A stretch of DNA of 63,128 nt from Patescibacteria group bacterium (GCA_023379025.1 JAMCTH010000007.1:1-63128); one strand, 5' to 3'. Counted from the stretch's first letter, positions 3,400-63,128 are shown. Program-made: numbers and translations. Notes: generated by a model not told the origin, from the letters alone.

Positions 3400-3515
3400 C
3401 CTTCGGTCTCTTGAGCGAGATGGAACGACCCGATCCCTTTCCGAACTCGGAAGTCAAACATCTCAGCGCCAACAATAGTACCGCCGCAAGGCGGCATGAA
3501 GATAGGTCGAGGCCG
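3400..3515 (+). rRNA. rrf: 5S rRNA
   Basis: The 5S signature CCCGATCCCTTTCCGAACTCGGAAGTCAAAC lies at 3429-3459. Helix I CTTCGGTCT (3401-3409) pairs with AGATAGGTCGAGG (~3500-3513). The gene is embedded in a long flanking stem, CCCGTAAAGATTTTGCGGTAAGA (3376-3398) with GATCTTAACGCAGAATCTTACGGG (3518-3541). The ends are approximate. Confidence 0.72.
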
Positions 3516-3548
3516 GGGATCTTAACGCAGAATCTTACGGGTCAGGCA

Positions 3549-3595
3549 TTCCGGACTCGGCAGCGAAACGCGTCAGCGCCAACAATACCTCCGCC
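3549..3595 (+). other. Degenerate partial 5S-like duplicate (loop C to helix IV segment)
   Basis: TTCCGGACTCGGCAGCGAAACGCGTCAGCGCCAACAATACCTCCGCC parallels 5S positions TTCCGAACTCGGAAGTCAAACATCTCAGCGCCAACAATAGTACCGCC. No helix I partner is visible. Confidence 0.5.
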
Positions 3596-3733
3596 TGTTT
3601 TATTCGTCGGTTTACCATCTGTCCTTCTTGCAGGCACGGCGGCGTTGAGATCACAGACAAGGCATTTGCCGATATGTACCGGTAAAAAACAGAATCCGCC
3701 TGCCTCCGGGCGGCACATGTAGTGTTATTGTGG

Positions 3734-18048: not shown

Positions 18049-18121
18049 GGGCCTGTAGCTTAGTTGGTAGAGCGCCGCATTCGCATTGCGGAGATCACCG
18101 GTTCGACTCCGGTCAGGTCCA
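18049..18121 (+). tRNA. tRNA-Ala (anticodon CGC)
   Basis: Acceptor GGGCCTG/CAGGTCC with a G3.U70 pair, anticodon stem CCGCA/TGCGG, loop TTCGCAT, T arm ACCGG-TTCGACT-CCGGT, discriminator A. CCA is not encoded. Confidence 0.9.
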
Positions 18122-18151
18122 CAGGCCAATATTGAAGATAACATTTGTTCC

Positions 18152-18222
18152 GGGCCCGTAGTATACCGGTAGAACGACTCCATGGCATGGAGTAGAAAGG
18201 GGTTCGATTCCCCTCGGGTCCA
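18152..18222 (+). tRNA. tRNA-Ala (anticodon GGC)
   Basis: Acceptor GGGCCCG/CGGGTCC with a G3.U70 pair, anticodon stem ACTCC/GGAGT, loop ATGGCAT, T arm AGGGG-TTCGATT-CCCCT, discriminator A. CCA is not encoded. Confidence 0.9.
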
Positions 18223-18233
18223 CCCAATATTCT

Positions 18234-25365: not shown

Positions 25366-25515
25366 AGTCCAACCCTAACAAGTTTGAGAAATACTGTCAA
25401 CAGAGCTAGAAGCCATCTCCAAACCTATTCTTCGAGCGTAGCGAGAAGTTCTCACATGCGTTCGAACAATATCTTTTCGAGATTTGAGATAACTTCTAGT
25501 GAGGGGTGGGCAGCG

Positions 25516-34309: not shown

Positions 34310-35055
34310 TGTCAAAAACCTATCCGGCAGTGTACCACGACTATATTGAGAAGGCGGAAAAAGCCCATTTTTGGTTTTCGGGGCGCCGGGCGCTTCTCCG
34401 GAACGTGATCGGCGCGTTTCTTCCGGGGGCTCCGGAGACTACATTTCTTGAGGTCGGCTGCGGAACCGGACTCGTCCTCGAGCTTCTGGAACGGATGGGG
34501 TTTAGCGCGGTCGGTCTTGATGTCAATGCAAAAGCGCTGTCCTTGGCGCGGAAAAAAACGAAGGCGCCGCTTATCCGGTCATCCCTCTACACCTTCCGGA
34601 CAGACCGGCAGTTTCAGGCGGTCGGCAGTTTTGATGTCCTGGAGCATCAGGAGAACGACCTCCTGTTCCTGCAGCGCTGCCGGTCACTCATCAGCCGCGG
34701 CGGGTATCTTTTTCTGACCGTTCCGGCCGGAAAACGGTTCTGGAGCCCTATTGATGCATATTCCGGACACAAGCGCCGGTATGAAGCCCGGGAGCTTGCG
34801 TCTCTGGTCAGGCGGGCCGGATTTTCCGTCCTTTTCTGCCGGTATTGGAATGCGCTGACCCTGCCGTTTTTTCTTTACAAGCGGCGCTGCGTAACGGAGA
34901 CACTCCCGGAACGGATGATTGCCGACTATGTAGAGAAGCCGCCGGCGGTCGTAAACTGGCTTCTCAATCTGCTTCTTTCCCTTGAGCGCATCGGTATCTT
35001 TACCATCCCGTATCCGGCCGGAGCAAGTCTCGTGCTGGTTGCCAAAAGGATATGA
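34309..35055 (+). CDS. Class I SAM-dependent methyltransferase
   Basis: The start ATG overlaps the upstream stop (TGATG). Motif I FLEVGCGTGL and FDVLEHQEND are present. The track's longer N-terminal extension is rejected. Confidence 0.85.
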   Translation: MSKTYPAVYHDYIEKAEKAHFWFSGRRALLRNVIGAFLPGAPETTFLEVGCGTGLVLELLERMGFSAVGLDVNAKALSLARKKTKAPLIRSSLYTFRTDRQFQAVGSFDVLEHQENDLLFLQRCRSLISRGGYLFLTVPAGKRFWSPIDAYSGHKRRYEARELASLVRRAGFSVLFCRYWNALTLPFFLYKRRCVTETLPERMIADYVEKPPAVVNWLLNLLLSLERIGIFTIPYPAGASLVLVAKRI

Positions 35056-37268
35056 AAAAAACCGCGGTGATTGCCGGGAGTTATGCACTGCTTCTGGTAT
35101 TCCTTTTCGGCGGGGCGCTTTTTCCGGGTCCCCACCGGATTATTTTCGGCGATGACATCACGCACCAGTACTATTATTACCGCGAATTTTTCCTTCATTT
35201 TTTCCGTCAGGGGATAGTCCCATGGTGGAACCCGTACAATTTCAGCGGCACGCCGTTTATCGCAAATCCGGCCGTCACTATCTGGTATCCCGGAACCTGG
35301 CTTTTTCTCCTGCTGCCTCTGAATATCGCCTACAGCTGGCACATCGCGCTGCATCTTCTGATTGCGATGACGGGGATGTACCTCTTTATTTCAAATCTCA
35401 AATCCCAAATCCCGATGACCAAACAAAACACACATCAAAAGAATGATCAAGAAAATGGAAGCATTGATGTCGCTTCCTGGGTGGGGGGAGTTGTGTTCGG
35501 GTTGTCGGGATTTTTCGTTGCCAGGATATGGGCGGGACACGTCGATATCATCGCAGCTGCAAGCTGGATGCCGTGGGTCGTGTGGGGGTTTTATCGATTA
35601 CATCACGCGGTAGGTGCGCGTGTTTCTGCGTCTCCGTCAAGCGTCGGCCCCCTGCGGGTGGCAGGAGCAGGGGGACCCCCGGGAAGGGGTCCCCTTGTGG
35701 GTGTTCCTGGGGGAAAGCTCCTGACAGGACCCGCTGGCACGTTCCTTCGCGTGACGATGCCCGAAAACGCGCACCTCCCCGCGCGCGGAATTGCACTTGC
35801 CTCCATCCTTTTTGCTTTCCAGCTGTATGCGGGCTACCAGACGATGGCATTTTTTACCGTAGAGGCAGTGATCATTGTTGTATTGTTCTATTGCTTTATT
35901 GTGAAAAGTTTTAGACCGTTACTCCCGGTAGCCATAGCGGGACTCCTGGGATTGGGACTGGCAGGTCTCCAGCTTATTCCTGAGCAGCAGTTTTTTCGGG
36001 AGACCATACGGACGTATGCACTCCCTTACCGCTGGACGTCGTACGGAGCGCTCACGTTTCGCGACCTTCTTTCATTTATTTCGCCGTTTCCCTTCGGGAA
36101 TCAGATGAACTACCGGGGGCCTGTTCCTAATTATTGGGAACATGCAGCATATCTCGGCCGGGTCGGATTGACGCTTGCCATCGTTGGATGCTTGAGCGTT
36201 TTATGGACCATGAAGAGAAAGAGGATAGAAAAATCCTGGAGTTTAGCTTTGGCAATGGTGGTTATCACGGTATTTGGGTTCTGGATGTCTTTTGGACCGA
36301 ATGCGCCGGTTGATCTCCAACATATCCTATGGAGCATCCTTCCGCCATACCATTACCTCCGTATTCCAACCCGCCATGTAATCCTTGTCGTATTCGGTAT
36401 GAGCGCGCTTGCCGGAATCGGGCTCGGCGCCCTCCGAAATAGGACCCTCCGGATTGTCATCACGCTCGCCGTCGTAGGGGAGATGCTCTGGTATGGAAAA
36501 ACCTTCATAACGCTTTCTCCGATCCCGGGCGGTCAGACCGATCCGACCTTAGTTTCTCTTTTTAAGAAAGACGTCGGTCCGTATCGGGTGCTTCAGGATT
36601 TTGGCGTATGGGTCTCTCCGCGGGAGAGCCTGGATTTTGACAGCACCATGATGTACGGAATATTTTCGGCAACCGGCTACGACCCGTCAATTCTACGCTC
36701 CTATTTCGACTATGTAGCCCGGGCTTCGGGGCAGACGGGGAGCGATGCGGTCCGGACAACGGATGTGCAGGTCCCGTACCTGGCCCCGGCTTCGGGGGAC
36801 GCCCTGGATTTTCTGAATATCAAATATATACTCGTGCCGCCGGCATACGATCCGTTTGCCGGGAATGCACGGTATGTTTTGGTCCGTGAAGACGCCAGGC
36901 GCGGTTATAGAGTATATGAGAATACGACGGTGAAGCCGCGGTTTTTCCTTGACAAGCGTTCCTGCGGCACGGTCCGTCTCGCGGGTTACACCCCAAATAC
37001 CATACGGCTGGATGTCGATACGACCTGTGCCGCCGGACTGGTCAGTTCGGAAGTCTGGTATCCGGGATGGACGGCATATGTCAATAATAAGAAGGTTGAT
37101 ATGGATAGAATAAATGGATCATTCCGGTCACTTTTTATATCCAGGGGAAATCACGCGGTAATCATGGTCTATGAACCGGCGATTTTTCTCATCGGAGGAT
37201 CCGTAACCATGGGCTCTGCCCTCATACTCATATGGCTGTTGGCAAGACGGAATACAGTCCTCACTTGA
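35052..37268 (+). CDS. YfhO-family (GT-C) membrane protein
   Basis: The N-terminal pattern is GDDITHQYYYYREFFLHFFRQGIVPWWNPYNFSGTPFIANP. It is a 738-aa polytopic protein with a C-terminal TM, and its ATGA start overlaps the upstream gene. Confidence 0.8.
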   Translation: MKKTAVIAGSYALLLVFLFGGALFPGPHRIIFGDDITHQYYYYREFFLHFFRQGIVPWWNPYNFSGTPFIANPAVTIWYPGTWLFLLLPLNIAYSWHIALHLLIAMTGMYLFISNLKSQIPMTKQNTHQKNDQENGSIDVASWVGGVVFGLSGFFVARIWAGHVDIIAAASWMPWVVWGFYRLHHAVGARVSASPSSVGPLRVAGAGGPPGRGPLVGVPGGKLLTGPAGTFLRVTMPENAHLPARGIALASILFAFQLYAGYQTMAFFTVEAVIIVVLFYCFIVKSFRPLLPVAIAGLLGLGLAGLQLIPEQQFFRETIRTYALPYRWTSYGALTFRDLLSFISPFPFGNQMNYRGPVPNYWEHAAYLGRVGLTLAIVGCLSVLWTMKRKRIEKSWSLALAMVVITVFGFWMSFGPNAPVDLQHILWSILPPYHYLRIPTRHVILVVFGMSALAGIGLGALRNRTLRIVITLAVVGEMLWYGKTFITLSPIPGGQTDPTLVSLFKKDVGPYRVLQDFGVWVSPRESLDFDSTMMYGIFSATGYDPSILRSYFDYVARASGQTGSDAVRTTDVQVPYLAPASGDALDFLNIKYILVPPAYDPFAGNARYVLVREDARRGYRVYENTTVKPRFFLDKRSCGTVRLAGYTPNTIRLDVDTTCAAGLVSSEVWYPGWTAYVNNKKVDMDRINGSFRSLFISRGNHAVIMVYEPAIFLIGGSVTMGSALILIWLLARRNTVLT
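35614..35788. repeat. About 175-nt GC-rich foldback element inserted in frame in the YfhO-like gene (copy 1)
   Basis: Core GGGGGACCCCCGGGAAGGGGTCCCCTTGTGGGTGTTCCTGGGGGAA (35670-35715). The arms are mutually complementary (GCGCGTGTTTCTGCGTCTCCGTCAAGCG versus CGCGTGACGATGCCCGAAAACGCGC). The reverse-complement copy is at 47589-47770. Confidence 0.85.
35874..35905. repeat. 8-bp-period cassette (ATTGTTNN x4) inside the YfhO-like gene
   Basis: ATTGTTGT ATTGTTCT ATTGCTTT ATTGTGAA, translated as IIVVLFYCFIV. Confidence 0.85.
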
Positions 37269-37274
37269 AAATTG

Positions 37275-37612
37275 TTGGTGTGAGTTTTTTGGCTAAGCCG
37301 GTGTAGAACGTTACCATTGCTTTTCGGTCAAAGGGGATAAGCATTCTGGGAACATCCGTGATTTCTGCTGCTTTGAGAAAGTTTTTTGATACTTGCAAGG
37401 GATCAACCCTTTCCCCGAACTTCTTATCTGCATCGCGGAATAAGCGTTCGATCGTCCATGCGGTCTGCGTCAGAATACAGTATAAATCTACATAGTCCCG
37501 TTCCTCCGCTTAAATAGAAGTTGTTGAGGATCCAGGGTGTTTTGAGTACCACTGCCAGAAATTGCTCCTGTCGAAGGCTAAGCCCTGTTCCGTTTTCCAT
37601 GGTTTGTGCCAT
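37275..37612 (-). pseudogene. Decayed AbiEii-like nucleotidyltransferase toxin remnant
   Basis: The N-terminal fragment ...LSLRQEQFLAVVLKTPWILNNFYLSGGTGL stops prematurely. A C-terminal-like piece (...ERLFRDADKKFGERVDPLQVSKNFLKAAEIT...) continues in another frame. The central catalytic part is missing. Confidence 0.35.
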
Positions 37613-37931
37613 AGATAGAATTTTAACACTTTCTGCTTGTCCGGGCTGATGCGGTTTTTTATAGAAGACCAGTGTGTTTTGATAAACTCCGGGTCCAGCT
37701 TTTCTCCTTCGAGACCATAACTAATAAGCTGGATGACGCGCCAGATATTATATTCATCGGGAAACTCGCGTTTGAGTTTTTTTCATCAGTATTCCAGTGA
37801 AACATAGCTCGAGTATACAGGAAAGAAAACTATAAAAAAAGGATGATACAAACCGCACAAGGACAGGCATCAGGCGTTGATCGGTCCGCCCAGGCATATC
37901 ACGTCTCGGCACCGGCGGCCACTCTCTGTTC

Positions 37932-37959
37932 TTGACACAAACCAATACAATTGTATAAT
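37932..37959 (+). promoter_or_regulatory. Consensus sigma70 promoter of vapBC (leaderless-type)
   Basis: TTGACA (37932-37937), a 16-nt spacer, TATAAT (37954-37959), then 10 nt to the ATG at 37970. Confidence 0.6.
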
Positions 37960-37969
37960 AGTATTATAT

Positions 37970-38221
37970 ATGAACTACGTGACTACCAACATCCGTTTCC
38001 CTGAAGACATCTATCTGGCGCTCAAGGAAGAAGCAGCCAAAAAAAGACTCAGTCTCTCCGCAGTAGTCCGCGAGAAAGTCGGAGCGGGCGATACACGCCG
38101 TTCGAAAGCGGAAATGACACGGTTAACCTCTCGGCTTGACACGACGGCGAAAGCACTCGGCGATAAGCTTAAAGGCTTTGACGCGGCGCGAGCGATCAGA
38201 AAGATGCGCGAAGAGCTATGA
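37970..38221 (+). CDS. vapB: Ribbon-helix-helix antitoxin (VapB/CopG-like)
   Basis: MNYVTTNIRFPEDIYLALKEEAAKKRLSLSAVVREKV is a typical RHH N-terminus. Its ATGA stop overlaps the start of the PIN gene. Confidence 0.7.
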   Translation: MNYVTTNIRFPEDIYLALKEEAAKKRLSLSAVVREKVGAGDTRRSKAEMTRLTSRLDTTAKALGDKLKGFDAARAIRKMREEL

Positions 38222-38622
38222 TTGTCGTTGACGCCTCAGTAGTCTACAAGTGGGTTGTTGATGAACAGGATGAAGCAACCCGTCGGGCAGTAAAGCTCCG
38301 TAATACCTACCTTGCAAAACGGGAAAAGGTCGTGGCACCCGACATCCTCCTCTACGAAATAGGCAACATTTTTGCGTATAAAACCAAACTTTCGCCAAAG
38401 GATATCTCAAAAGCGTGGCAAAGTTTTTTACTCCTGGATATTCCTACGGTATCCGCTACGGCGTCGTTTATTACCGGTTGCCTTACCGTTTCCCGCAAAT
38501 ATGCCATATCCGTGTACGATGCCGCGTACGTGGAACTCGCGCGGGAAAAAAAGTGCAGGTTAATCACTGCCGATACCGTGTTGGTTAAACGGGTCCATCA
38601 GCCGTTCGTCAGGTCACTGTAG
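38218..38622 (+). CDS. vapC: PIN-domain toxin VapC
   Basis: MIVVDASVVYKWV... (first acidic residue), ...LLYEIGN..., ...VYDAAYVELAREKKCRLITAD. The length of 134 aa is typical. Confidence 0.85.
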   Translation: MIVVDASVVYKWVVDEQDEATRRAVKLRNTYLAKREKVVAPDILLYEIGNIFAYKTKLSPKDISKAWQSFLLLDIPTVSATASFITGCLTVSRKYAISVYDAAYVELAREKKCRLITADTVLVKRVHQPFVRSL

Positions 38623-39990
38623 ACTTTCCGGCCGCTTTCTGCCGGTATGTTCGGATGCACGGATGAGCCAGCGGACCGACAAAATAACCATTAACGGGTA
38701 GTACGGGATAAGATAACGCGGCTCTGTCATGGCCAGGTAGGAAATCGGCACGAGGCTTACGAGATACAGGACGGCATACCAGCGGAAGACCGGTTGCGGG
38801 TCGAAAAATGCGAACAGAAGCGACGGGAGGAATATACACAGGAACAACGGGGGCATGATGACGGCGTAAAGCGTACGGGACACAGAGACATACCGGTCCC
38901 AGAGCGGATACGTCCACGGCGTCATGATGAGCGGCCTGCAGAACCGGATCGTCCCGAGGTTTCCGCAGTAGAGCGGCTGTACCGGATCCCTTCCGCCTTC
39001 GGTTTCAAGGTTATGCCAAAACGGTGCGCGTGCGGTAAGCGTCCGGAAAAAAACGCGGATGCCGCTTTCCAGGTAGTCAAACGGATATTGCCGGATGGCG
39101 GCAATCCCCACGTTTCCGAGAATGGTATCGAGGGCGTGCCAGCTCCGCCCCGTTTTGGGAAGGATATAGTCCTGCAGATCCCAGTATTCCGCATAGGGGT
39201 TTACCGTCTTGGGCACGAACCGCCGCAGCGTCCGTACCGCCGGAGTCTGTTCGCTTGGAAAATGCCGGCCGTCCCACACAAAATTGGTATAAAACGGCAT
39301 GAGCTTGGTATCAGACAGCCCCCAGACGCCGGTGACCGCATGATTGGTGAGGACCCAGCAGCCGAGGATAACCAGGCCTGCGGCCAGGCTGAAACCCGTC
39401 ATTGTTGCGGAACGTTTCCGGCGGAGGCCGTACCGGAGGAGGAGGAGAACGGAAAAACAGAAAAGAACTATGAACTGATATTTGAGGAGGCTCATGCACG
39501 CGGCGAGGACGACGGCGTACGCGAGAGGGGCAATCCGTTTCGTTTGTATAAAACGGGTAAACAGAACCAGGTACAGGAGGAACGCGGTCTGTGCCGGCAG
39601 TTCGGTCATCATGGAGACCGAGTAGATGAGATTTACCGGGAACAGGAGGAACAGGAGGCTGATGACGGCGGCTGCCGGCGCGGAAACTCCCGGGGTAAGC
39701 AGTACATACAACAGGAACGCTCCGGAGGCAAAAAGTGCGATATGCACCAGGTGGAGAAGTATCGTGCCGGACGGCAGTATGCCGATAAGCGCGATAGCTA
39801 TGCCGTAAAGCGGCGGAGAGACGGTCGTCGGACGGCTGTAAAGAAACGGCGCGATAAACGGGTACGTGCCGGTTGTCAGGTACCGGCCGATCGCCCAGTA
39901 AAAATAGCCGTCGATATTCGTATAGAGAAACAGAAAGACGAAGTGGAACAGGAGTATGGCCGCGCCGGAGAGGACGGCAATCCGTTTCAT
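38614..39990 (-). CDS. GT-C-like polytopic membrane protein
   Basis: The start is taken at M11 (MKRIAVLSGAAILLF), giving an ATGA overlap with the upstream gene. It has about 11 TM segments and the early loop NIDGYFYWAIGRYLTTGTYPF. Confidence 0.72.
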   Translation of the reverse strand: MKRIAVLSGAAILLFHFVFLFLYTNIDGYFYWAIGRYLTTGTYPFIAPFLYSRPTTVSPPLYGIAIALIGILPSGTILLHLVHIALFASGAFLLYVLLTPGVSAPAAAVISLLFLLFPVNLIYSVSMMTELPAQTAFLLYLVLFTRFIQTKRIAPLAYAVVLAACMSLLKYQFIVLFCFSVLLLLRYGLRRKRSATMTGFSLAAGLVILGCWVLTNHAVTGVWGLSDTKLMPFYTNFVWDGRHFPSEQTPAVRTLRRFVPKTVNPYAEYWDLQDYILPKTGRSWHALDTILGNVGIAAIRQYPFDYLESGIRVFFRTLTARAPFWHNLETEGGRDPVQPLYCGNLGTIRFCRPLIMTPWTYPLWDRYVSVSRTLYAVIMPPLFLCIFLPSLLFAFFDPQPVFRWYAVLYLVSLVPISYLAMTEPRYLIPYYPLMVILSVRWLIRASEHTGRKRPESLQ

Positions 39991-41873
39991 TTCGCTCCTT
40001 TCCAATACGGGACAATACACGGGTCTTCACCGTGCCACCAGGGGGTTTTGCGCGGAATGACGTTATCCGTCCGGTTGTCAAATACCCAGGTGAGCGGCGT
40101 TCCCCGTACCGATACGGTGTAGGACGGTCTGTGGGTCAGGAGGTAGTCAAAGGCATGGAAGAACCGGTAGTAAAAGGACTGGCGGTTGAGGATAACCACA
40201 AAATCCGAGCCGTATCCGAGTGTGTTGACCGTTTTGAGAAGATCGGGCCGGAGATACAACGCGCCCACATCCGGCATCATGACGATGTCCACCGTCGCAT
40301 GTTCCGGAGCATGGGTATTCACCCAGTTGACAGCCGCTTTTTGTGAGGTACCCCAATAGTCGAGATCATACTTTCCGTATGCTCCCTGGACACCGCCAAC
40401 GAGTTCGTTAAAGTACGTCACCTCATACGGGTGATAGGAGAGGATCTGGAAGGAAAGGAAGGCGAGGAGTATGACGGTTATGAAGACCTCTGCCATAGTT
40501 TTTGCTTTTACTGAGAATTGTTTTATTGTTACATTGTTACATTGTTGAAAACAAAAATCAGCCCCGATTGCCGCAAGGGCGGCGATGGGGAAGAGGACTT
40601 CTTCAAAATGCCGTATGCCGTCGATGACGCCGATCGTCGGGATAAAGTAGCGGGTGAGGGGGAGGAAAAACCAAAGAAGTATCAAGAGGTTCGCGCTTTG
40701 GTCAGTATGTGGTGTTCTCGTATCGTCAAGGTCCGGGACGCTGTTCTGTTTACCAGTGTTTTTTGCCAAGGCCGTGACGATACTTCGAAACCACATACTG
40801 GCCCGCGAGACTATGGCACGTATGAACGTAATTACTCCCAACGAAGAGAAGAAAAGTACCGGCAGCGGCGTCGTGACTGCAAGATACCAGTACGGGTAAT
40901 ACCACGGCACGGTCGAACCGGAGCAGTACCATCTGCCATGGAGCAGTACTTCAAGATTGTCGGTGCTGACGCTAAACGTGCGGTACAGCTGTACAACCTC
41001 ACGGACCGGATGCTGCCAGAAGAGGGCCCAGAGGGCAAACGCCGCAACGGGAGCCAGAAGAAAAAACCCAAATCCCGTCCGCCAGCCGGCGGACCGCGCC
41101 CGGGACAGGCTCAACATGATAAACGAAAAAAATGATGTATGATTTGCGTTTGGTTTTTTGAATTTTACCGGGATTTGGGCATTGGGTTTTGCGATTTGAA
41201 GGAGAATAAGCCATGCCGCATATACAACCGGTATAAATATGGCATTTACTTTTATATTGAATGCCAGGGCAAATCCGAGAACCGCGGGGATGAAATCCCT
41301 TACCCGCCGGTAGCGGACAAGCCGCCACAGAAGCCAGATATTGAGGGCAAAAATGACGGCGGAGGGGATATCTTTCATATTATTATGGAGGTCGCCGAAA
41401 TAGCGCGGCGTTAACGCAAGGAATAGTGCGCCAAGGATGGCGACGCGACGGTTTACTGCCTCTGCCAAGAAGAAATATAAGATCCCTATGCCGGCGACGC
41501 CCCAAAGAATGATCGGAAGATTGTACGCGCTGTCAAACGGCAGGATGTGCCACGCCCGGAAAAGGTAGAGAAACGACAGGACGGGCGGTATGGACATGAG
41601 CGGCCCGTAGGGAAGCGTCCACGCGTTTCTCGGATCCGGCGCTACATACGGAAGCGGCCGCGGGTCGAGGTCCTGCCAGGAGAGCCCCAGGAAATGCCCG
41701 CCGCCGAAAAAATGGAAATGGAAATCCCAGGTCAATCCATAGTCATTGATCGCCACAAGATGGATACAGAGAAAAAAAAGCGCGATGAGAAAGCCGATGA
41801 ATAGGGTTTTTTTGTCCATGTTGTATCCTCTCTCGCTGTACACCCTGGTCCGGCGCGTATACCGCTCTCTCAA
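39987..41873 (-). CDS. GT-C-fold glycosyltransferase-like membrane protein (PMT_2/GT39-like)
   Basis: 628 aa with the loop INDYGLTWDFHFHFFGG and the motif TPRYFGDLHNNMKDIPSAV. It directly abuts the upstream gene. Confidence 0.78.
   Translation of the reverse strand: MRERYTRRTRVYSERGYNMDKKTLFIGFLIALFFLCIHLVAINDYGLTWDFHFHFFGGGHFLGLSWQDLDPRPLPYVAPDPRNAWTLPYGPLMSIPPVLSFLYLFRAWHILPFDSAYNLPIILWGVAGIGILYFFLAEAVNRRVAILGALFLALTPRYFGDLHNNMKDIPSAVIFALNIWLLWRLVRYRRVRDFIPAVLGFALAFNIKVNAIFIPVVYAAWLILLQIAKPNAQIPVKFKKPNANHTSFFSFIMLSLSRARSAGWRTGFGFFLLAPVAAFALWALFWQHPVREVVQLYRTFSVSTDNLEVLLHGRWYCSGSTVPWYYPYWYLAVTTPLPVLFFSSLGVITFIRAIVSRASMWFRSIVTALAKNTGKQNSVPDLDDTRTPHTDQSANLLILLWFFLPLTRYFIPTIGVIDGIRHFEEVLFPIAALAAIGADFCFQQCNNVTIKQFSVKAKTMAEVFITVILLAFLSFQILSYHPYEVTYFNELVGGVQGAYGKYDLDYWGTSQKAAVNWVNTHAPEHATVDIVMMPDVGALYLRPDLLKTVNTLGYGSDFVVILNRQSFYYRFFHAFDYLLTHRPSYTVSVRGTPLTWVFDNRTDNVIPRKTPWWHGEDPCIVPYWKGAK
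40517..40548. repeat. 8-bp-period cassette (ATTGTTNN x4) inside the GT-C gene
   Basis: ATTGTTTT ATTGTTAC ATTGTTAC ATTGTTGA, read on the minus strand as ...FQQCNNVTIKQFS... Confidence 0.85.
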
Positions 41874-43577
41874 TCAGGGTTTTTCGATTCCGGGAACGGG
41901 AGAAGTAACCTGATATATCGTGATCATCGCATTCTTATAGATTTTAGAAAGGAACGGAAGGTTTTGTGCATACAGAGGAAAGCCCTGGAGCGTTCCGGCG
42001 ATGATGTATCCTATCCTGTTTTGTTGAAGAAAGGCTTCGGCATCGGATGATCTGAGGGAACGGGAGAAAAACATCTGTCTGAGGCGTTCTTTTTCGTCCG
42101 GATGGAGGGTGTGGATGGGGTGGCCGTTGAAAACGGTTTTGTCGGTAAAGACCGGAACCATGATTTCTATCGGCATACCGCTGTCGACCATGACGACGGG
42201 CCTTAGCGGATTATCCGGCTGACCTTTGAGCCAGGTGAGAGCACCGGCGACAGGGTTCGGAACATAGGCATAGAGAGAACCGGCCAGGAGCACCGGATCA
42301 CCGGCCGGCGTGAGGCGCGCAGAAAAATCGGCGATACTTCCCGGCAGATCCAGAATGAGGGCTCCGGCAAGGAAAAGGATGAGAAAAAGATTGCCGGGCC
42401 CCAATCGGATCTTTTCAACGACTGTCCGTAACGTCCGACTGAGCTTTTGCATGCCGAGGAGCGCAAGGATGGTCAGGCCGGCGTACCCTGCCGGGAATTG
42501 GTAGCGGGACGGAACAGTTCCCAAAAGGCGCGGAAGCGGGGAGAGAAAGAAGGCCGCAGACACAATCGCCGTGGCAGAGAATAGGACTGCCGTTGTACTT
42601 TTTGTGCGGACAAGCGCGAAAAGCCCGAACGGCAGGAACAGTGTCAGCGGGCCCAGGGATACGAGAAAATGCCGGAAACCGGTATTGACATACTGCCGCA
42701 GCTCCCAAACCTTGGCAGCCGCAAAAATCGGCGAGGAGAATTCCCGGTTTATGAGCCAGGCAGCCGGAAGCGCGGCAAGACCGGTAATGAGAAGTGCTGT
42801 GAGGGCCGGCTTGTATCCTGATGTATGGCGGAAGGCCGACCAGAGACCGGTAACCGCCGCTGCGGGAAGGAAAACGAGTATGGGCAGCGGATTTGCGGAA
42901 GCTGCCAACATGGATATGGCCGCAAGCAGCAGGTATGTTTTCGGCGCGGCGGAACTATTGCGGCTGGTGAGCTTGAGCGCTTTGATAAACATAATTGAGA
43001 GAAGCAGGAAAAGTATGGTCTGCCAGACCTGGTGCGGGACGCCGCCCAGCCGGTTAAAGACCGGCGCGGGAGAGAACCAGAGATCGTCGGGGAAGAGAAG
43101 CCGGTGTTGATTGAGAAGGACGGAAAGGTCAGGAAGCGGGGATCCGATAAGGTACAGAAGAAATCCCCCGATACGTGCAGCGGGATCATCCGGAAAGCTC
43201 CGGCACAGTACCAGGAAGACAAGGACGAGCGAACAACTGACCAGGAGAAAAAGCGCCGTGTTGTATACGGCAAACGGAGAAAGTCCGACCAGGTGGCCCA
43301 GCCATCCGAGAACGTTGTTAAACCAGTACATCCAGGTAGGCGGGAGCGGTTCACCGGTAAAGCGTTGGGTATACCAAAGTTGTCCTGCAGCACCTTCCGC
43401 CATCTGAGCGGTGTAAAGAAAGTAATCTGCCCAGTACTGGATACTTGCAGTAAATACCGTGTGCGGCGGCTGGTTAAACCAGCCGACGAAAACCGGTGCC
43501 TGATTGGCAACAGCGGCGAGGATAGCGAGGCATCCCGCGCATATCCATTCAATCACTCTGTGTTGTTTCTTTTGCAT
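41874..43577 (-). CDS. Polytopic membrane protein, 'DYxxYL' family paralogue D
   Basis: 567 aa. N-terminal loop TVFTASIQYWADYFLYTAQMAEGAAG and C-terminal FLQQNRIGYIIAG. Confidence 0.72.
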   Translation of the reverse strand: MQKKQHRVIEWICAGCLAILAAVANQAPVFVGWFNQPPHTVFTASIQYWADYFLYTAQMAEGAAGQLWYTQRFTGEPLPPTWMYWFNNVLGWLGHLVGLSPFAVYNTALFLLVSCSLVLVFLVLCRSFPDDPAARIGGFLLYLIGSPLPDLSVLLNQHRLLFPDDLWFSPAPVFNRLGGVPHQVWQTILFLLLSIMFIKALKLTSRNSSAAPKTYLLLAAISMLAASANPLPILVFLPAAAVTGLWSAFRHTSGYKPALTALLITGLAALPAAWLINREFSSPIFAAAKVWELRQYVNTGFRHFLVSLGPLTLFLPFGLFALVRTKSTTAVLFSATAIVSAAFFLSPLPRLLGTVPSRYQFPAGYAGLTILALLGMQKLSRTLRTVVEKIRLGPGNLFLILFLAGALILDLPGSIADFSARLTPAGDPVLLAGSLYAYVPNPVAGALTWLKGQPDNPLRPVVMVDSGMPIEIMVPVFTDKTVFNGHPIHTLHPDEKERLRQMFFSRSLRSSDAEAFLQQNRIGYIIAGTLQGFPLYAQNLPFLSKIYKNAMITIYQVTSPVPGIEKP

Positions 43578-43654
43578 ACGTCTTATGTATTCCGTCTTTT
43601 GGCTATCCGGAGTATAAAAAAAAGTGATACCCTTTACTATAGCGGAATTTCCCT

Positions 43655-45184
43655 ATGACTACCCGAACCCTCTCCACCCTTTGCGTCGTCCTGTGCGTTT
43701 TGGGAAGCGGCCTCGTTTTGGGCGATCTTCTCCGGTGGCACCGGACGCTCGGCCTTGTCCGCTTTTTCGATGCGGATGAGTTTGCCTACCTCCACTGGGC
43801 GGCGCATATGGCGGCGGGCCGGGTGCCGTACCGGGATTTTTTCCTGTTCGTGCCGCCCGGATTCGGGTGGTTTCTCATGCCGCTCTTTTTCTTCGGTCAT
43901 GGCATCTCCCCCCTTATTGCGGCACGCGTCATGGAATTTGCGGTATTCACCCTTCTGGTCGGGGTGACGATCGGTCTTTTCTGGCTTCTCAGGCGCTCGT
44001 GGCTTGCCCTCCTCGCCGGAGTGTTCCTTGCGTTCCTGCCTCTCCCGTTTGATAAATTTATTGAGGTACGTCCGGATACGCTTGCGGCGCTTCTCGTGAC
44101 GGGCGGGATAGTGGGCGAGATTCTCTGGATGCGGGAGAAGGGCGCGCGGTACGGAGTCCTGGCCGGGGTCCTCTATGCGGCATCACTCATAGTACTGCCG
44201 AAGACACTGCCGGGTGTCGTTGTGGGAGTCGGGATTGCAGCCGGATCTGCGATGGGGAGAGGGGAGGATGGGAAGAGGGGAGAGGGGAAACGCATGGTTC
44301 GGATGCTTGCGGCGCCGGCCCTCGGGTTCCTCCTCCCGCTTCTTATGTTTGGCGTTTGGTGCCTTTCCGTCGGGAACCTTCCGCTTGTTCTCTATTCAAT
44401 CTTCCGGCTGCCTTTTGAAGTCAATGAAATAAGCCGGACCTTTGTCATGATGCCGGACCTGTTCTTTTACCCCAATGCGGTCTATTTCGGCGCCGGCGGG
44501 TGGGGGGAGGCGCTTCTTGTCAACCATGCCCTATGGATGGCAGGACTCGTTTTTGGGTTGTACCGGCTCCTGACGCCGGTACTGACGCGGGGAAAAACGT
44601 ATCTTTGGGAAGAACTTCTTCTTGCTCTAAACTTCCTGGCACTCGTCTTTTTTTACGTGGAGTTTATCCCGCTGAAGCACGCGCAATACCTCATCCCCAT
44701 AGCCGTGTTTGTCGCATGGTATTCGGCAGATATGCTGGACAGTCTCTGGCAGAAGATGAAGAGAAGTACCGCCGGAATTGTGGTTTTTGGCGTTGCGGCG
44801 CTCGGGCTCCTCGGGCTCCTCTATTCGGTGAATGCGGCGGCCGAGCAGCCGAAGCTGGCCGGAACAAACACACAAAACCTTACTGCGCTTGCCGTGCTGT
44901 ACCGGACCCTTCCCCGCGCGACGCCGGTTCTGGATCTGGTCGGCAGCATGCTGTATTACCCCGATCCGTACTATGCCTGCTGTCTCCCGATAGGGCAGTT
45001 TGCGGCCTATCTGTCGCGGCCCCTTCCGCCGCTTGCGGCGGCGCTTGAGAGGGAAAAGGTGCCATATATATATCAGGGAGAACCCGGCCGCGTATCGACG
45101 CTCCTCCCGGCCGATCAGGAATATATACGCCTACACTACCATCCGGTGGCCGATGGCGACCCGGCGCTCCTCGTACGTCACTGA
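43655..45184 (+). CDS. GT-C-fold glycosyltransferase-like membrane protein (ArnT/PMT_2-like)
   Basis: Motif FFDADEFAYLHWAAHMAAGRVPYRDFFLF. It is a paralogue of 25516-26973. Confidence 0.8.
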   Translation: MTTRTLSTLCVVLCVLGSGLVLGDLLRWHRTLGLVRFFDADEFAYLHWAAHMAAGRVPYRDFFLFVPPGFGWFLMPLFFFGHGISPLIAARVMEFAVFTLLVGVTIGLFWLLRRSWLALLAGVFLAFLPLPFDKFIEVRPDTLAALLVTGGIVGEILWMREKGARYGVLAGVLYAASLIVLPKTLPGVVVGVGIAAGSAMGRGEDGKRGEGKRMVRMLAAPALGFLLPLLMFGVWCLSVGNLPLVLYSIFRLPFEVNEISRTFVMMPDLFFYPNAVYFGAGGWGEALLVNHALWMAGLVFGLYRLLTPVLTRGKTYLWEELLLALNFLALVFFYVEFIPLKHAQYLIPIAVFVAWYSADMLDSLWQKMKRSTAGIVVFGVAALGLLGLLYSVNAAAEQPKLAGTNTQNLTALAVLYRTLPRATPVLDLVGSMLYYPDPYYACCLPIGQFAAYLSRPLPPLAAALEREKVPYIYQGEPGRVSTLLPADQEYIRLHYHPVADGDPALLVRH

Positions 45185-45193
45185 CCGGGGTAT

Positions 45194-45222
45194 TTGCAAA
45201 CCCGAAACGCCTCCTGTATGAT
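45194..45222 (+). promoter_or_regulatory. Sigma70-like promoter of the GT2 / acetyltransferase / aminotransferase operon (leaderless-type)
   Basis: TTGCAA (45194-45199), a 17-nt spacer, TATGAT (45217-45222), then 8 nt to the ATG at 45231. Confidence 0.5.
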
Positions 45223-45230
45223 GAGCCGCA

Positions 45231-45956
45231 ATGAAGGGTAGAACTGATATTTCCCTTGTCCTTCCCTGTTACAACGAAGAGAAGCTGTTCCGGGACAGTG
45301 TCGGCCGGATTATCGAGACGCTCGATCGCCTCCCGTACCGGTGGGAGATATTGTTTGTCGATGACGGAAGTCACGATAATACTCCGGCGCTTATCCGGGC
45401 AGTCTGTACAAAGGACCGCCGCTGCCGGGCTATTTATCACCCGTTCAATGTTGGACGGGGAAAAACGGTTGCGGACGGCATCATCGCGGCGCGGGGAAGG
45501 GTCGCCGGATACATAGATATAGACCTTGAGGTTTCCCCGATCTATATCGCGGAGATGGTGGCTCCGATCCTTGCGGGAAAGACCGACAGTACCGTCGGAA
45601 AACGGATCTACCGGACTGCGGTACCTTCCCTGTTCCGGGAAATCCTGAGCCGCGGATACCGGCGGCTCGCGGATCTGGTGATTGCTACGGGCGGCATAGA
45701 CACTGAATCCGGGTATAAATTCTTTAATCGAAAAAAGATTGTACCCATTTTATCGCTTGCCGCACACCCGCATTGGTTCTGGGATACGGAAATCATCGTC
45801 TATGCGCTGAGGAACCGTCTCCGGATTACCGAAATACCGGTCCTTTTTTCGCGGCGGACGGACAAGCAATCATCCGTCCGGCTTCTTCCTGATCTGCTGG
45901 ATTACGGGAAAAGCCTGTGGATGTTCCGGAGAAAACTGGCAAAAAGCAGAACATAA
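45231..45956 (+). CDS. GT2 polyprenyl-phosphate glycosyltransferase (DPM1/GtrB/ArnC-like)
   Basis: ISLVLPCYNEE...ILFVDDGSHDNT...VGRGKTVADG. It is a short, 241-aa soluble GT-A protein. Confidence 0.85.
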   Translation: MKGRTDISLVLPCYNEEKLFRDSVGRIIETLDRLPYRWEILFVDDGSHDNTPALIRAVCTKDRRCRAIYHPFNVGRGKTVADGIIAARGRVAGYIDIDLEVSPIYIAEMVAPILAGKTDSTVGKRIYRTAVPSLFREILSRGYRRLADLVIATGGIDTESGYKFFNRKKIVPILSLAAHPHWFWDTEIIVYALRNRLRITEIPVLFSRRTDKQSSVRLLPDLLDYGKSLWMFRRKLAKSRT

Positions 45957-45992
45957 TGGAAACGTAAACTGTTCAATAGTTTTAAACTATCC

Positions 45993-46532
45993 ATGAATAC
46001 CGTGAAAACTATCGGGATAGAAAAAGCCATACGGTTTCTCTGGACCAGCGTCTATGCAGGACTCGTTTCCGTTTCGTTGCTTCCGCCTCTCCGGGCGGTG
46101 CTCCTCAGGTTTGCGGGAGCGGCGGTCGGCGCTGATACCGTGCTTTTGCAGGTCCGCTTCGCCAATCTCTACCACTACGGGTTCCGGAAACTCACGATCG
46201 GGAAACGGTGTTTTTTGGGCGATGACGTCATGCTCGATGTCCGGGGCGGCATCCGCCTCGGGGACGACGTGACCCTTTCGAGCCGGGTCTCAATCGTCAC
46301 GCATATAAACGTCGGATACCCAAATCACCCGCTTCAAAAATACTATCCGACCAGGGAAGCGCCTGTCGTCATCGGGGACGGCTCATATATCGGTACCGGC
46401 GCCATTCTCCTGCCCGGAGTCCGTATCGGGAACATGAGTATCGTCGGCGCCGGCGCGGTCGTCACCCGCGACGTTGCGGAGAGAACCGTTGTGGCCGGCG
46501 TGCCGGCAAGAAGGATTAAGGTTCTCAGGTGA
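45993..46532 (+). CDS. Hexapeptide-repeat (LbH) acetyltransferase
   Basis: Left-handed beta-helix repeats: IRLGDDVTLSSRVSIVTH...VVIGDGSYIGTGAILLPGVRIGNMSIVGAGAVVTRDV. Confidence 0.85.
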   Translation: MNTVKTIGIEKAIRFLWTSVYAGLVSVSLLPPLRAVLLRFAGAAVGADTVLLQVRFANLYHYGFRKLTIGKRCFLGDDVMLDVRGGIRLGDDVTLSSRVSIVTHINVGYPNHPLQKYYPTREAPVVIGDGSYIGTGAILLPGVRIGNMSIVGAGAVVTRDVAERTVVAGVPARRIKVLR

Positions 46533-46561
46533 CGCCGGTGACGTCAGTACTCTCTCTATAT

Positions 46562-47908
46562 ATGTATATCCCTCTTACCAAACCATATTGGGGGAAAGCC
46601 GAAGAACGGGCGGCCGTTGAGGCCCTACGGCACTCGAGCGGCGCCGGCGACGGATCGTACACGAAACAGCTTGCGGGGAAGCTCACGAAGCTTACGGGCA
46701 TGAGGTACGCCATCCCCGTGACCTCCTGTACCCATGGCCTCGAGCTTGCGATGGCGGCCCTCGGGATCGGGCCGGGAGACGAGGTGATCGTGCCGAGCTT
46801 TACCATGACGTCAACTGCCAACTGCGTGGTACTCCGTGGGGCTACACCCGTTTTTGCGGATATCGAACCGCTCACGTATGGCCTGTCGGTTGGTGATGTA
46901 GCGCGGCGGATCACCGAACGGACGAAAGGGGTGATCTTCGTGCCGTATGCCGGTATGCCGGGCGATATACGGGCCATCCGGGCGCTCTGCCGGGAGAGAG
47001 GGTTATTTTTGGTTGAGGATGCGGCGCATGCGATCGGCGCCTATGACCGCGGGAAACACCTCGGCACTTTCGGGGACATCGGCGTCTTCTCGTTCCACGG
47101 GACCAAAAACGTGAGCTGCGGCGAGGGGGGAGCGGTCGTGACCGACCGGAAAGATCTCTATGATACTATGGAGATCTACCGGGCCAACGGGACGAACCGT
47201 ACCGCGTTTCTTGCCGGTATTGTGGATAAATACAGTTGGGTCGGGAAAGGTACTAGTTATTTCCTTTCCGATATATTAGCGAATATTGTATCGGCACAAC
47301 TGGATCACATTACCACGATAAATAAAAAAAGAAATCAAATTGCTCTCTATTACTCCAAACAGCTTCAGCATTACGCAGGTCTGTTCGATCTGCCGCGGGT
47401 GCCGCCGGGCGCACAGCCGAACTGGCACATTTATGCCGTCCTTTTTAAGAAAAAAACACACCGCGATCTCTTCCTCCGGGAAATGAGGAAGCGGGGAATT
47501 GACGCGGCCTACCATTACGTGCCGCTCCATAGTTCGAGGATGGGAAGGAAACTGGCTGGGTCGATTTTTGATCAAGGACAATTATCATGCGCGGCGCGGC
47601 GAGCTTTTCCGAGCACCGTCACTGCGCCGGAAACCGGAAAGCGGCGGGTCCTGTCTCGGTTTTTCCCCCAAGAAAACCCACAAGGGGACCCCTTCTTGGG
47701 GGTCCCCCGAACCGAGCCACCCGCCGTACCAGCGCCTGACGGATGCGCAGCAAAAAGTGAGCCGCGCGAAGCGCCGTGTCCTGCCCTGCCAGTAACTGAT
47801 TTTGTTTGGGAGCGGCTCGTCCGGCTCCCGATCTACCCGGGACTGACGAGTAAGCAGCTGCAGTATGTCGTCCAACAGGTGCGGGAGACCCTGCAGGCAT
47901 ATATATAA
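46562..47908 (+). CDS. DegT/DnrJ/EryC1/StrS-family sugar aminotransferase (ArnB-like) with a roughly 70-aa insert
   Basis: MYIPLTKPYWGKAEERAAVEAL, VTSCTHGLELA, FSFHGTKN (PLP lysine context), AYHYVPLH. A GTG at 46529 is an alternative start. The foldback repeat accounts for the insert before the LPIYPGLT motif. Confidence 0.85.
   Translation: MYIPLTKPYWGKAEERAAVEALRHSSGAGDGSYTKQLAGKLTKLTGMRYAIPVTSCTHGLELAMAALGIGPGDEVIVPSFTMTSTANCVVLRGATPVFADIEPLTYGLSVGDVARRITERTKGVIFVPYAGMPGDIRAIRALCRERGLFLVEDAAHAIGAYDRGKHLGTFGDIGVFSFHGTKNVSCGEGGAVVTDRKDLYDTMEIYRANGTNRTAFLAGIVDKYSWVGKGTSYFLSDILANIVSAQLDHITTINKKRNQIALYYSKQLQHYAGLFDLPRVPPGAQPNWHIYAVLFKKKTHRDLFLREMRKRGIDAAYHYVPLHSSRMGRKLAGSIFDQGQLSCAARRAFPSTVTAPETGKRRVLSRFFPQENPQGDPFLGVPRTEPPAVPAPDGCAAKSEPREAPCPALPVTDFVWERLVRLPIYPGLTSKQLQYVVQQVRETLQAYI
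47589..47770. repeat. About 180-nt GC-rich foldback element inserted in frame in the aminotransferase gene (copy 2, opposite orientation)
   Basis: Core TTCCCCCAAGAAAACCCACAAGGGGACCCCTTCTTGGGGGTCCCCC (47664-47708) is the reverse complement of the 35670-35715 core with a few substitutions. Flanking arm similarity extends about 70 nt on each side. Confidence 0.85.
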
Positions 47909-53354: not shown

Positions 53355-53360
53355 CTCCAT

Positions 53361-53394
53361 CAACCCGCCGGGTTGAATAGGTTTAAACCTCTTC
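53361..53394. repeat. REP-like inverted repeat, left copy, flanking the Y1 transposase
   Basis: CAACCCGCCGGGTTGAATAGGTTTAAACCTCTTC contains the palindrome AACCCGCCGGGTT. It matches the reverse complement of 54103-54136 at 30 of 34 positions. Confidence 0.8.
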
Positions 53395-54060
53395 CAGAAC
53401 CAGGTGTTTGATTTTTTCTAATTGTTTCGCCAGGGCGATCTGATCACTGACGAAGTCCCTGTATGGGTGTTTGTCAGAGAAATGGGAAAGAACCGTACGG
53501 GTTTCCAACCATGGGACAGGAGGAGTTCCTCCATAGGCAGGGAGCGATGACCAGCGATACGTCCAGAGGTCAGCTTCATCGATGATGCCTGAGGAAACGG
53601 GGTTGAGATGGATATAGCGGGATACGTGAAGCAGCTGTTCGTCAGTTTCGATCGGTACGGCCTTAAACGGCCCCTGGTAGAGCGGTCCGACCCTGTCCTG
53701 CTTTTTATTGAAATATTTAGCGTAGCCGTTGGCGATAGTAGAGATTGCAGTGATAATGCCATGATCAACGTTTTGCCTCACGATCAGGTGAAAGTGGTTG
53801 GGCATGAGGCAGTAGGCCAGAATGTCTACGCCGGGAGGGGTTGTTCGGAGCTTTGCCGCATAGTATTGGCGTTCGTTCACGGGCAGGGTGAGAAAATGGG
53901 AGAAGCTTCTCGGCACATCCATAAAACGGTAATACTCGATAAGCAGTGTGAAACGGCGGTAATCACGGGCAGAGAGGAAAATATTCCGCCGTTCAACGCC
54001 GCGGTTAAAGACGTGATAGACGTAGCTGTTGCGGAAGGCAATCGGGCGGGGTGAAGCCAT
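53383..54060 (-). CDS. REP-associated tyrosine transposase (RAYT) / IS200-like Y1 transposase
   Basis: HUH motif PNHFHLIV and catalytic Tyr context SRYIHLNPV, with N-terminal YHVFNRGVERRNIF. The gene is bracketed by inverted REP-like repeats. Confidence 0.85.
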   Translation of the reverse strand: MASPRPIAFRNSYVYHVFNRGVERRNIFLSARDYRRFTLLIEYYRFMDVPRSFSHFLTLPVNERQYYAAKLRTTPPGVDILAYCLMPNHFHLIVRQNVDHGIITAISTIANGYAKYFNKKQDRVGPLYQGPFKAVPIETDEQLLHVSRYIHLNPVSSGIIDEADLWTYRWSSLPAYGGTPPVPWLETRTVLSHFSDKHPYRDFVSDQIALAKQLEKIKHLVLEEV

Positions 54061-54102: not shown

Positions 54103-54136
54103 GAAGAGGTTTAAATCTAAGAAACCCGGCGGGTTG
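54103..54136. repeat. REP-like inverted repeat, right copy
   Basis: GAAGAGGTTTAAATCTAAGAAACCCGGCGGGTTG. The direct heptamer CTGTCAA x2 lies immediately upstream (54088-54101). Confidence 0.8.
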
Positions 54137-54152
54137 AAGTGTGAAGCGGGGA

Positions 54153-63113: not shown

Positions 63114-63128
63114 CCTCTATCTCTACAA
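63099..63128. repeat. Inverted repeat, outer copy, truncated by the window edge
   Basis: CACGACCGACAACAACCTCTATCTCTACAA. It contains the giant ORF's candidate start codons on the minus strand and encodes TTDNNLYLY on the plus strand. Confidence 0.9.

Follow-up and report, generated by a model that had tools for sequence, protein, structure and literature searches.

How can one GC-rich foldback sequence lie inside two unrelated genes, in opposite orientations, and leave both reading frames open? The question is raised by a 63,128-nucleotide (nt) contig of a Patescibacteria group bacterium (GCA_023379025.1, JAMCTH010000007.1:1-63128), where such a sequence occurs once in a gene for a YfhO-like membrane protein and once in a gene for a DegT-type aminotransferase. 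We refer to the whole stretch of DNA that was analysed, at its full length, as "the window". An earlier note, made from the sequence of the window alone, had likened the pair to the Rickettsia palindromic element (RPE), which inserts in frame into protein-coding genes. Here, we describe an analysis that follows up that proposal. Both sequences belong to a dispersed GC-rich foldback repeat family in bacteria of the candidate phyla radiation (CPR), or Patescibacteria, of the Microgenomates/Gottesmanbacteria type. We favor, with a probability of roughly 0.6, the reading that the family is a selfish foldback element, non-autonomous and RPE-like, which genes can tolerate because it is translated as a surface loop.

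A repeat search of the window returned an 81-nt inverted pair, with arms at positions 35654–35734 and 47644–47724 that are 81% complementary. The motif GGGGACCCCnnnGAAGGGGTCCCC has two exact occurrences in the window, on opposite strands, as compared to 0.01 expected from shuffled sequences. In a pairwise alignment, the similarity between the two copies reaches ~185 nt. Each copy folds as a single long imperfect hairpin, with −101.9 kcal/mol (z = −2.8) for copy 1 and −114.6 kcal/mol (z = −5.2) for copy 2. The earlier note had described two oppositely oriented copies with a near-identical core, each a long imperfect palindrome, and all of this holds; the positions that it gave, 35614–35788 and 47589–47770, are close to the refined boundaries. 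The two copies, their parts, and their host genes are as follows:

35052 to 37268, + strand: host gene 1, encoding a YfhO-family membrane protein of 738 amino acids (Pfam YfhO match; orthologue alignment).
35606 to 35788, + strand: copy 1, long form (~183 nt), sense in the YfhO-like gene, with a hairpin fold; it aligns with copy 2 and with contigs L003, L004, L065, and L012.
35606 to 35653, + strand: 5′ outer arm of copy 1, lineage-specific, ...GTGCGCGTGTTTCTGCGTCTCCGTCAAGC... (long-form alignment A4); it has a coreless counterpart in the YfhO loop of L078 and L079.
35654 to 35734, + strand: apical core of copy 1, 81 nt, GCGGGTGGC...GACAGGACCCGC (covariance model R1, 98.7 bits, E = 5e-19).
35735 to 35788, + strand: 3′ outer arm of copy 1, ...CGCGTGACGATGCCCGAAAACGCGCACCTCCCCGCGCGCGG (alignment A4; matched by BLASTN to the insert of L079, E = 1e-6).
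46562 to 47908, + strand: host gene 2, encoding a dTDP-4-amino-4,6-dideoxygalactose (WecE/DegT-type) aminotransferase of 448 amino acids (Pfam and PDB matches; alignments A2 and A5).
47575 to 47782, − strand: copy 2, whole hairpin (208 nt), antisense to the aminotransferase gene (fold; alignments A1 and A4).
47589 to 47776, − strand: the part of copy 2 that is homologous to other long forms (alignments A1 and A4).
47644 to 47724, − strand: apical core of copy 2, 81 nt (covariance model R1, 102.1 bits, E = 1e-19).

Covariance model R1 detected no third core in the window. At the core of copy 2 it scores only 12.9 bits on the opposite strand, meaning that the core is strand-asymmetric. The two copies are oppositely oriented within one GC-skew domain.

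Translation of the window's open reading frames (ORFs) shows that both copies are stop-free in the frame of their host. The encoded peptides are exactly those quoted in the earlier note; segments predicted to span the junctions include ...VAGAGGPPGRGPLVGVPGGK... and ...FFPQENPQGDPFLGVPR.... Copy 1 lengthens a loop of the YfhO-like protein by ~55 residues, between ASWMPWVVW and QLxAGYQTMAFFT. Copy 2 lengthens the aminotransferase by ~71 residues, between HYVPLHSSRMG and LPVTD; the earlier count of about 70 extra residues between HYVPLH and LPIYP agrees with this, the flanking motifs being HYVPLHSSxMG and LPVTD/LPIYP. The Pfam match of the aminotransferase ends at residue 342, which is the start of the insert. 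In an AlphaFold2 model of this protein, built from a 120-sequence alignment, the mean predicted local distance difference test score (pLDDT) is 89.1; residues 340–383 have pLDDT <50 and no secondary structure, as compared to >94 for the flanking fold. In the model, the fold is intact and the insert is a disordered excursion from it. Separately, runs of the octamers ATTGTTGT/ATTGCTAT occur at 21384–21683, 35874–35910, and 40509–40545. One of these runs lies ~85 nt 3′ of copy 1 within the YfhO gene, where it encodes the hydrophobic IVVLFYCFIV; the runs may reflect coding bias or another repeat.

Alignment of orthologues, which the earlier note had proposed for the aminotransferase, shows that the insert is absent from most orthologues of either host gene. 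Most aminotransferase homologues have 372–390 amino acids and no insert (alignment A2), and at the syntenic locus L078 the site is empty, with a protein of 377 amino acids. Two syntenic aminotransferase orthologues, on L074 and L075, have the outer arms of the long form in the same loop, in the opposite orientation and with a core that is not intact. The homologue on L077 (3001–4395) has an unrelated, AT-richer hairpin in the HYVPLH/LPVTD loop (z = −4.2). Most YfhO orthologues have a short loop without an insert; L078 and L079 have arms-only versions in that loop, oriented as in copy 1, in which the covariance model detected no core, and P0128 is probably also arms-only, judging by peptide sequence only. 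It follows that the aminotransferase and YfhO loops have been repeatedly hit or remodelled. Arms-only copies may have lost the core, or the core may have been a later addition. Unrelated inserts of 25–50 amino acids occur at other loops of the CPR aminotransferase homologues P0114, P0102, P0020, P0093, and P0057, either after an AxYKGK motif or before an LPxVP motif (alignment A2); the CPR genomes that encode these homologues may generally carry foldback inserts in frame.

The family extends well beyond the window. In an exact-pattern scan over a genome collection with one genome per species, the core was found in Gottesmanbacteria (two contigs), in Blackburnbacteria, and on three contigs of two metagenome-assembled genomes (MAGs) labelled Gammaproteobacteria. 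A looser pattern identified 65 metagenome contigs with the core, from groundwater, sediment, and soil. Viral contigs gave no matches to the core pattern, and a phage origin of the element is therefore not supported. After duplicate removal, public CPR-type genome and metagenome contigs hold 58 distinct copies. A covariance model built from these copies gave 74 matches in 77 loci, with three additional copies, and several contigs have two. The density on the contigs seen is approximately one copy per 5–70 kb. Contig L018 has two copies of 167–171 nt, 2.1 kb apart, whose 94% identity suggests recent duplication. The Gammaproteobacteria label, or the binning, is doubtful for the contigs concerned (L002, L003, and L004; two MAGs): LepA on L002 ("uncultured Gammaproteobacteria") scores 498 bits against Thermus EF4 as compared to 437 bits against the E. 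coli protein, and it resembles the LepA of other element-bearing contigs. The earlier note had allowed for the case that only two copies exist, both shared with orthologues as conserved protein sequence; instead, public contigs have the core at no fewer than 58 distinct sites.

Half of these copies lie within genes. Requiring at least 80 codons on each side of a copy, 29 of the 58 copies, as well as copy 2 of the window, are inside ORFs and stop-free; with both window copies in the count, this makes 30 of 59. Approximately 10 of the in-ORF copies are sense and 21 antisense, and the copies occupy five of the six possible frames, the TGA of GGGTGAC being a stop in the sixth. The hosts are mutually unrelated and largely housekeeping genes. 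They include LepA (three cases, at the same codon), leucyl-tRNA synthetase (LeuRS; two), M16 peptidase (two), TsaD, Tgt, RadA, and GT2-, YfhO-, and PMT-like membrane proteins. The inserts add ~23–33 residues in loops, as judged against solved homologues. The remaining copies lie at ORF ends or in short intergenic spacers, which often separate divergent genes; among the copies outside long ORFs, none was seen to split a gene out of frame. The encoded peptides vary with the frame (GGPPGRGPLVG, PQGDPFLGVP, PTRGPLLGGP, THKGTPSWGS, and others). Since the nucleotides are conserved while the peptides change with frame and strand, the constraint is on the nucleic acid and not on the protein. This distribution over unrelated ORFs, in both orientations, supports the description of an RPE-like in-frame element with which the analysis began.

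The constraint is apparent from the anatomy of the core, whose unit is 81 nt long in 38 of 57 copies (alignment A3). From the base of the hairpin to its tip, alignment A3 defines the following parts:

P1 stem: GCGGGT/ACCCGC, with variable, covarying outward extensions.
Bulge: 3 nt, AGG, between P1 and P2, on the 3′ strand.
P2 stem: hypervariable, 6–7 bp, with G-C pairs and a purine-purine pair closing it.
Internal loop: AG-GGGGGA facing AAA.
P3 stem: CCCCCAAGAA/TTCTTGGGGG.
Apical loop: invariant, 17 nt, GGGGTCCCCTTGTGGGT.

The closing combinations of P2 are themselves fixed, GAC being invariably found with GGCAGG, and GGC invariably with GACAGG. Standard pairs fill 86% of stem cells, as compared to 75% after shuffling and 35%–53% when the partners are slid by one to three columns. 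Stem cells changed on both sides number 216, against 78 shuffled and 32–72 slid. The covariation score is 0.292 as compared to 0.114 for shuffled alignments, none of 500 of which reach 0.292, and at most 0.083 for slid ones. The earlier note had proposed a GGGGACCCC/GGGGTCCCC hairpin. That hairpin can form, but it is not the covarying stem of the family, which is CCCCCAAGAA/TTCTTGGGGG around the loop GGGGTCCCCTTGTGGGT. Indeed, GGGGACCCC/GGGGTCCCC and the base of P3 compete with each other, and ten copies have a C-to-T change together with the paired G-to-A change, which argues that P3 is favored. We also considered a GGGGA/UCCCC pseudoknot, and did not retain it: its pairs are invariant or lose pairing uncompensated, so covariation cannot decide. 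A G/A swap at one of its positions still pairs with the loop T, and such a pseudoknot is sterically doubtful alongside a full P3 stem. Beyond the core, the build is modular, with the 81-nt core placed upon outer arms that vary by lineage. The arms of the window copies are ~50 bp per side, and one long form is common to these copies and to L003, L004, L065, and L012 (alignment A4). The arms on L018 differ from this long form, and L005 and L007 share yet another extension.

Is the hairpin made of DNA or of RNA? Typical structured RNAs tolerate G·U far more than A·C. Despite the strong covariation of the core, G·T occurs 42 times and A·C 36 times among 1,472 stem cells, and the ratio is alike for sense, antisense, and intergenic copies. 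At its gathering thresholds, Rfam 15 reports only rRNA and tRNA in the window and no family for the element, and a permissive Rfam scan of copy 1 gave only chance-level matches, far below cut-offs. The lack of a G·T bias, the occurrence of both orientations in mRNAs, and the lack of an Rfam match together argue for pairing at the DNA level, in a single-strand hairpin or a cruciform, and not at the RNA level. On this evidence, the element would be a DNA hairpin and not an RNA.

By analogy, the known system that appears closest in behavior is the RPE. RPEs, as summarised in PMC10969869, and the element described here are both dispersed palindromic repeats of roughly 80–200 nt with no transposase coding capacity. 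In both cases the host bacterium has a small genome, about half of the copies are in-frame insertions in genes that are unrelated and often essential, the extra peptide is predicted to be compatible with the protein surface, and there are several subfamilies. The stable dispersed hairpin of ~100–150 bp expected of such an element is seen here (z = −2.8 and −5.2 in the window; 58 distinct copies), as is the large in-frame fraction in unrelated genes. There are also differences. According to the same summary of Ogata et al. (2000, 2002), each RPE family encodes a conserved peptide in one frame, whereas five frames on both strands are used here and the peptide is not conserved. The host belongs to the CPR and not to the Alphaproteobacteria, and the element is RPE-like in behavior without being assigned to the RPE family. 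Lastly, the CPR element has a modular 81-nt core that recurs across many lineages on lineage-specific arms and is strand-asymmetric with an invariant 17-nt loop. The MITEs, or miniature inverted-repeat transposable elements, that are found within genes (ERIC, Coxiella QMITE1, cyanobacterial Nezha, and Anabaena MITEs) are similar in being short and non-autonomous, with inverted repeats and possible in-frame fusions, and the long forms described here do have imperfect inverted outer arms at their termini. However, no consistent target-site duplication was found at the copies, whose exact ends are uncertain, nor a parent insertion sequence with matching ends, within the limits set by short contigs. 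Furthermore, the arms of the element covary, as expected from selection or repair for pairing, whereas the terminal inverted repeats of MITEs are conserved as transposase-binding sequences. Full-text searches of the literature yielded no description of such an element for CPR/Patescibacteria, in line with the earlier note, which knew of no equivalent there; a literature search for a 12-mer of the core motif had a single match, an irrelevant PCR primer.

We rate the element as coding-compatible palindromic selfish DNA with a conserved core that is unusually well defined and some indications of site preference. Under the mechanism that we propose, spreading takes place, or took place, at the level of DNA. 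An enzyme acting in trans would recognise the element in the form of a folded single strand or a cruciform, since the element encodes none itself; HUH/Y1 single-strand transposases (RAYT- or IS200-like, where RAYT stands for REP-associated tyrosine transposase and REP for repetitive extragenic palindrome) are a candidate class only. Persistence in genes would follow from a unit length that is usually a multiple of three and from a GC-rich sequence that is stop-free in five of six frames, with the survivors limited to insertions in permissive surface loops. Transcription and translation would then turn the element into an additional loop of the host protein, Gly/Pro/Arg-rich and for the most part disordered.

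Several observations weigh against this reading. First, the excess of open frames is modest: the mean is 5.02 of 6, as compared to 4.37 of 6 in GC-matched, dinucleotide-preserving shuffles, because GC-rich sequence has few stops anyway. Translation of the insert into the host protein is itself a prediction from sequence. Second, no consistent flanking direct repeat or tetranucleotide was found for the 58 copies when P1 was extended, the exact ends being uncertain. A TTAC that adjoins both window copies was considered as a target motif and rejected, as it is not common to other long forms. Third, an all-against-all BLAST of ORFs (~0.5 Mb, short contigs) revealed no recurrent transposase-like neighbor within 3 kb of copies. 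The clusters of neighboring ORFs correspond to host-gene families, and the largest is joined solely by the peptide that the element encodes. Fourth, the two Y1 transposase genes on element-bearing contigs, in the window and on L049, are flanked by other simple hairpins and not by the core. Fifth, the contigs were collected by sequence pattern (CCCCTTGTGGGT, GGGTGRC), and this search itself accounts for part of the invariance. Lastly, at orthologous sites the core is 71%–85% conserved, as compared to 59%–78% for the coding DNA on its flanks; most of the differences are compensatory, and the loops are identical (LepA; M16 peptidase pair). Such conservation is unexpected for purely selfish, immobile relics, and calls for selection in place, for repair from arm to arm or conversion between copies, or for repeated insertion at specific sites.

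This last point leads to the alternative that survives best, although we consider it unlikely: that the core is a functional structured nucleic-acid module selected in situ, either a protein-binding DNA hairpin or cruciform, or a small RNA with expression of its own, which is in genes by virtue of its function or through homing. Invariant loops (the 17-nt GGGGTCCCCTTGTGGGT and CAGGACCC) beside hypervariable, covarying stems are consistent with this, as is the strand asymmetry of the core (102 vs 13 bits), and so are the LepA codon, occupied in three lineages, and the M16 pair, where the core outconserves its flanks by compensatory change. The three LepA copies at an identical site are of different subtypes, A, A′, and B, all of which are also found at many other loci. 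This arrangement, like the opposite orientations in orthologous aminotransferase loops, fits targeted insertion or replacement, and parallel in-place evolution of the LepA copies is unlikely. Conservation of the core could come from conversion by other copies, from site-specific insertion, or from in-situ selection, all of which are possible. However, a functional module is difficult to reconcile with the use of both orientations relative to transcription, with two window copies opposed in one GC-skew domain, and with the lack of wobble bias. Cores are decayed or absent in the orthologous inserts of L074, L075, L078, and L079, no gene recurs beside copies, and the invariance owes something to the search pattern. 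Moreover, repair within DNA hairpins, from arm to arm, could give compensatory changes in palindromes in the absence of selection.

A more speculative version, to which we give slightly less credence still, joins mobility to selection. The 81-nt core may be the recognition module of a new CPR mobility or homing system, a coding-compatible hairpin that is placed repeatedly into the same loops of conserved housekeeping genes and kept intact by selection. Repeated loop use is what suggests it: the same LepA codon holds three subtypes, and the same aminotransferase loop is used in both orientations. If true, this would represent either a new class of gene-resident mobile element with a dedicated enzyme, or a DNA structural signal within coding sequence that the host uses.

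It is improbable that the element is derived from REP/REPIN or IS200/IS605 sequences (a palindrome-associated transposable element, or PATE) and moved by the RAYT-like Y1 transposase of the window. Y1-class enzymes act on folded single-stranded DNA hairpins, and REPs are hairpin repeats that are thought to be handled in this form; stem covariation and the lack of a target-site duplication would both fit such an enzyme. The window does encode a Y1_Tnp protein of 225 amino acids (53383–54060, − strand; Pfam E = 4.5e-8), whose best NCBIfam match is a REP-associated tyrosine transposase, with a score below the curated cut-off. Its gene lies between 35-nt inverted repeats (53360–53394 and 54103–54137) that contain the perfect hairpin TCAACCCGCCGGGTTGA, which is a REP-RAYT-like arrangement. 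A homologue with 41% identity is encoded on the element-bearing contig L049 (1621–2229), with three copies of a different hairpin, CCGCAAGGTCTCACCTTGCGG, around it, one of them within its own ORF. These hairpins flank the Y1 genes where the core does not, and a link between RAYT and the element is not supported by the repeats at either gene. In addition, a Y1 gene is found on only 2 of ~60 contigs. REPs are 20–40 nt long, extragenic, tagged with GTAG/CGTC, and flank RAYT genes, whereas the core is 81 nt, half of its copies are intragenic, and GTAG is found in some copies only, with no conserved GTAG/CGTC tag. IS200/IS605-derived elements have a fixed tetra- or pentanucleotide target and separate end hairpins; here, there is no fixed flanking tetranucleotide, and the element is a single extended hairpin.

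It is very improbable that the element is removed or skipped at the level of RNA or translation, as a tiny intron-like or ribosomal-bypass sequence, leaving host proteins without the insert. GC-rich palindromic bypass elements do exist in yeast mitochondria. Like these "byp" elements and like homing introns and inteins, the element is a small mobile insert at conserved positions of essential genes, with a stable conserved structure in LepA, LeuRS, RadA, and TsaD. However, the known elements are skipped or spliced, and excision does not need a reading frame, whereas all 30 in-gene copies are in frame and stop-free, in both orientations. Two thirds of them run antisense to the mRNA, an orientation that would not reproduce the asymmetric core, and there is neither an Rfam intron or ribozyme match nor an RNA-type G·U bias. 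An intein would have a Hint domain and a single frame; the inserts, of 27–70 amino acids, have a frame-dependent peptide and no Pfam domain within.

We dismiss an assembly artefact, or a low-complexity protein insert shared by descent, for although this is a metagenome-type contig whose last 30 nt (63099–63128) are an exact inverted copy of 62653–62682, so that caution is warranted, dozens of assemblies, made independently in different projects, contain the core in frame, five frames yield unrelated peptides from conserved DNA, and both window copies are far from the contig ends.

Other features of the window bear on its origin or stand on their own. The 3′ part of a 23S rRNA gene (1–2064) takes up 2,064 nt for 1,200 model positions, leaving an insertion of ~860 nt that contains a LAGLIDADG endonuclease ORF (367–1194) and resembles the rRNA introns that are common in CPR bacteria. 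For both host proteins, the named relatives belong to Gottesmanbacteria, Microgenomates, or Patescibacteria; together with the 23S insertion, they fit the CPR-type genome assumed at the outset. A 5S rRNA gene (3402–3518) is followed by a diverged 5S-like stretch that Rfam does not call, 3549–3595 being 79% identical to 3439–3485 (window 3402–3600). Two tRNA-Ala genes, with anticodons CGC and GGC, lie 30 nt apart (18049–18224). An inverted repeat of ~50 nt, TATTCTTCGAGCGWAGCGAGAAGTTCTCA...TTCGAACAATAT, with a small hairpin, is found at 25426–25475 and 62038–62087, 36 kb apart and 88% identical, and may be a second small repeat family. One of its copies is inside a giant ORF (54153–63113, − strand; 2,986 amino acids) with internal direct repeats (55982–56034 and 56375–56427, 94% identical) and Gly-rich runs of the GGTGGTGG type, which probably encodes a giant repetitive surface protein. 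The exact reverse complements at 62653–62682 and at the window end are 416 nt apart, and could be a fold-back artefact of the contig end or a real inverted repeat that was cut off. A 98-nt inverted match, I1 (26801–26898 and 43748–43845), was rejected as an element, since it corresponds to the N-terminus, FDADEFAxLHW...PYRDFFL, of two paralogous membrane proteins on opposite strands.

CPR/Patescibacteria have genomes of about 1 Mb. If our preferred reading of an RPE-like selfish element is correct, streamlining does not exclude selfish DNA from such genomes, even from the inside of essential genes. The family would be a second, independent case, after Rickettsia, of selfish palindromes that live in coding sequence and lengthen proteins. 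It may account for some of the odd insertions in CPR proteins, with consequences for structure prediction, annotation, and the calling of orthologues in these organisms. With its sharp definition, invariant loops, and covarying stems, the 81-nt core would also serve as a handle for finding the enzyme that moves such elements.

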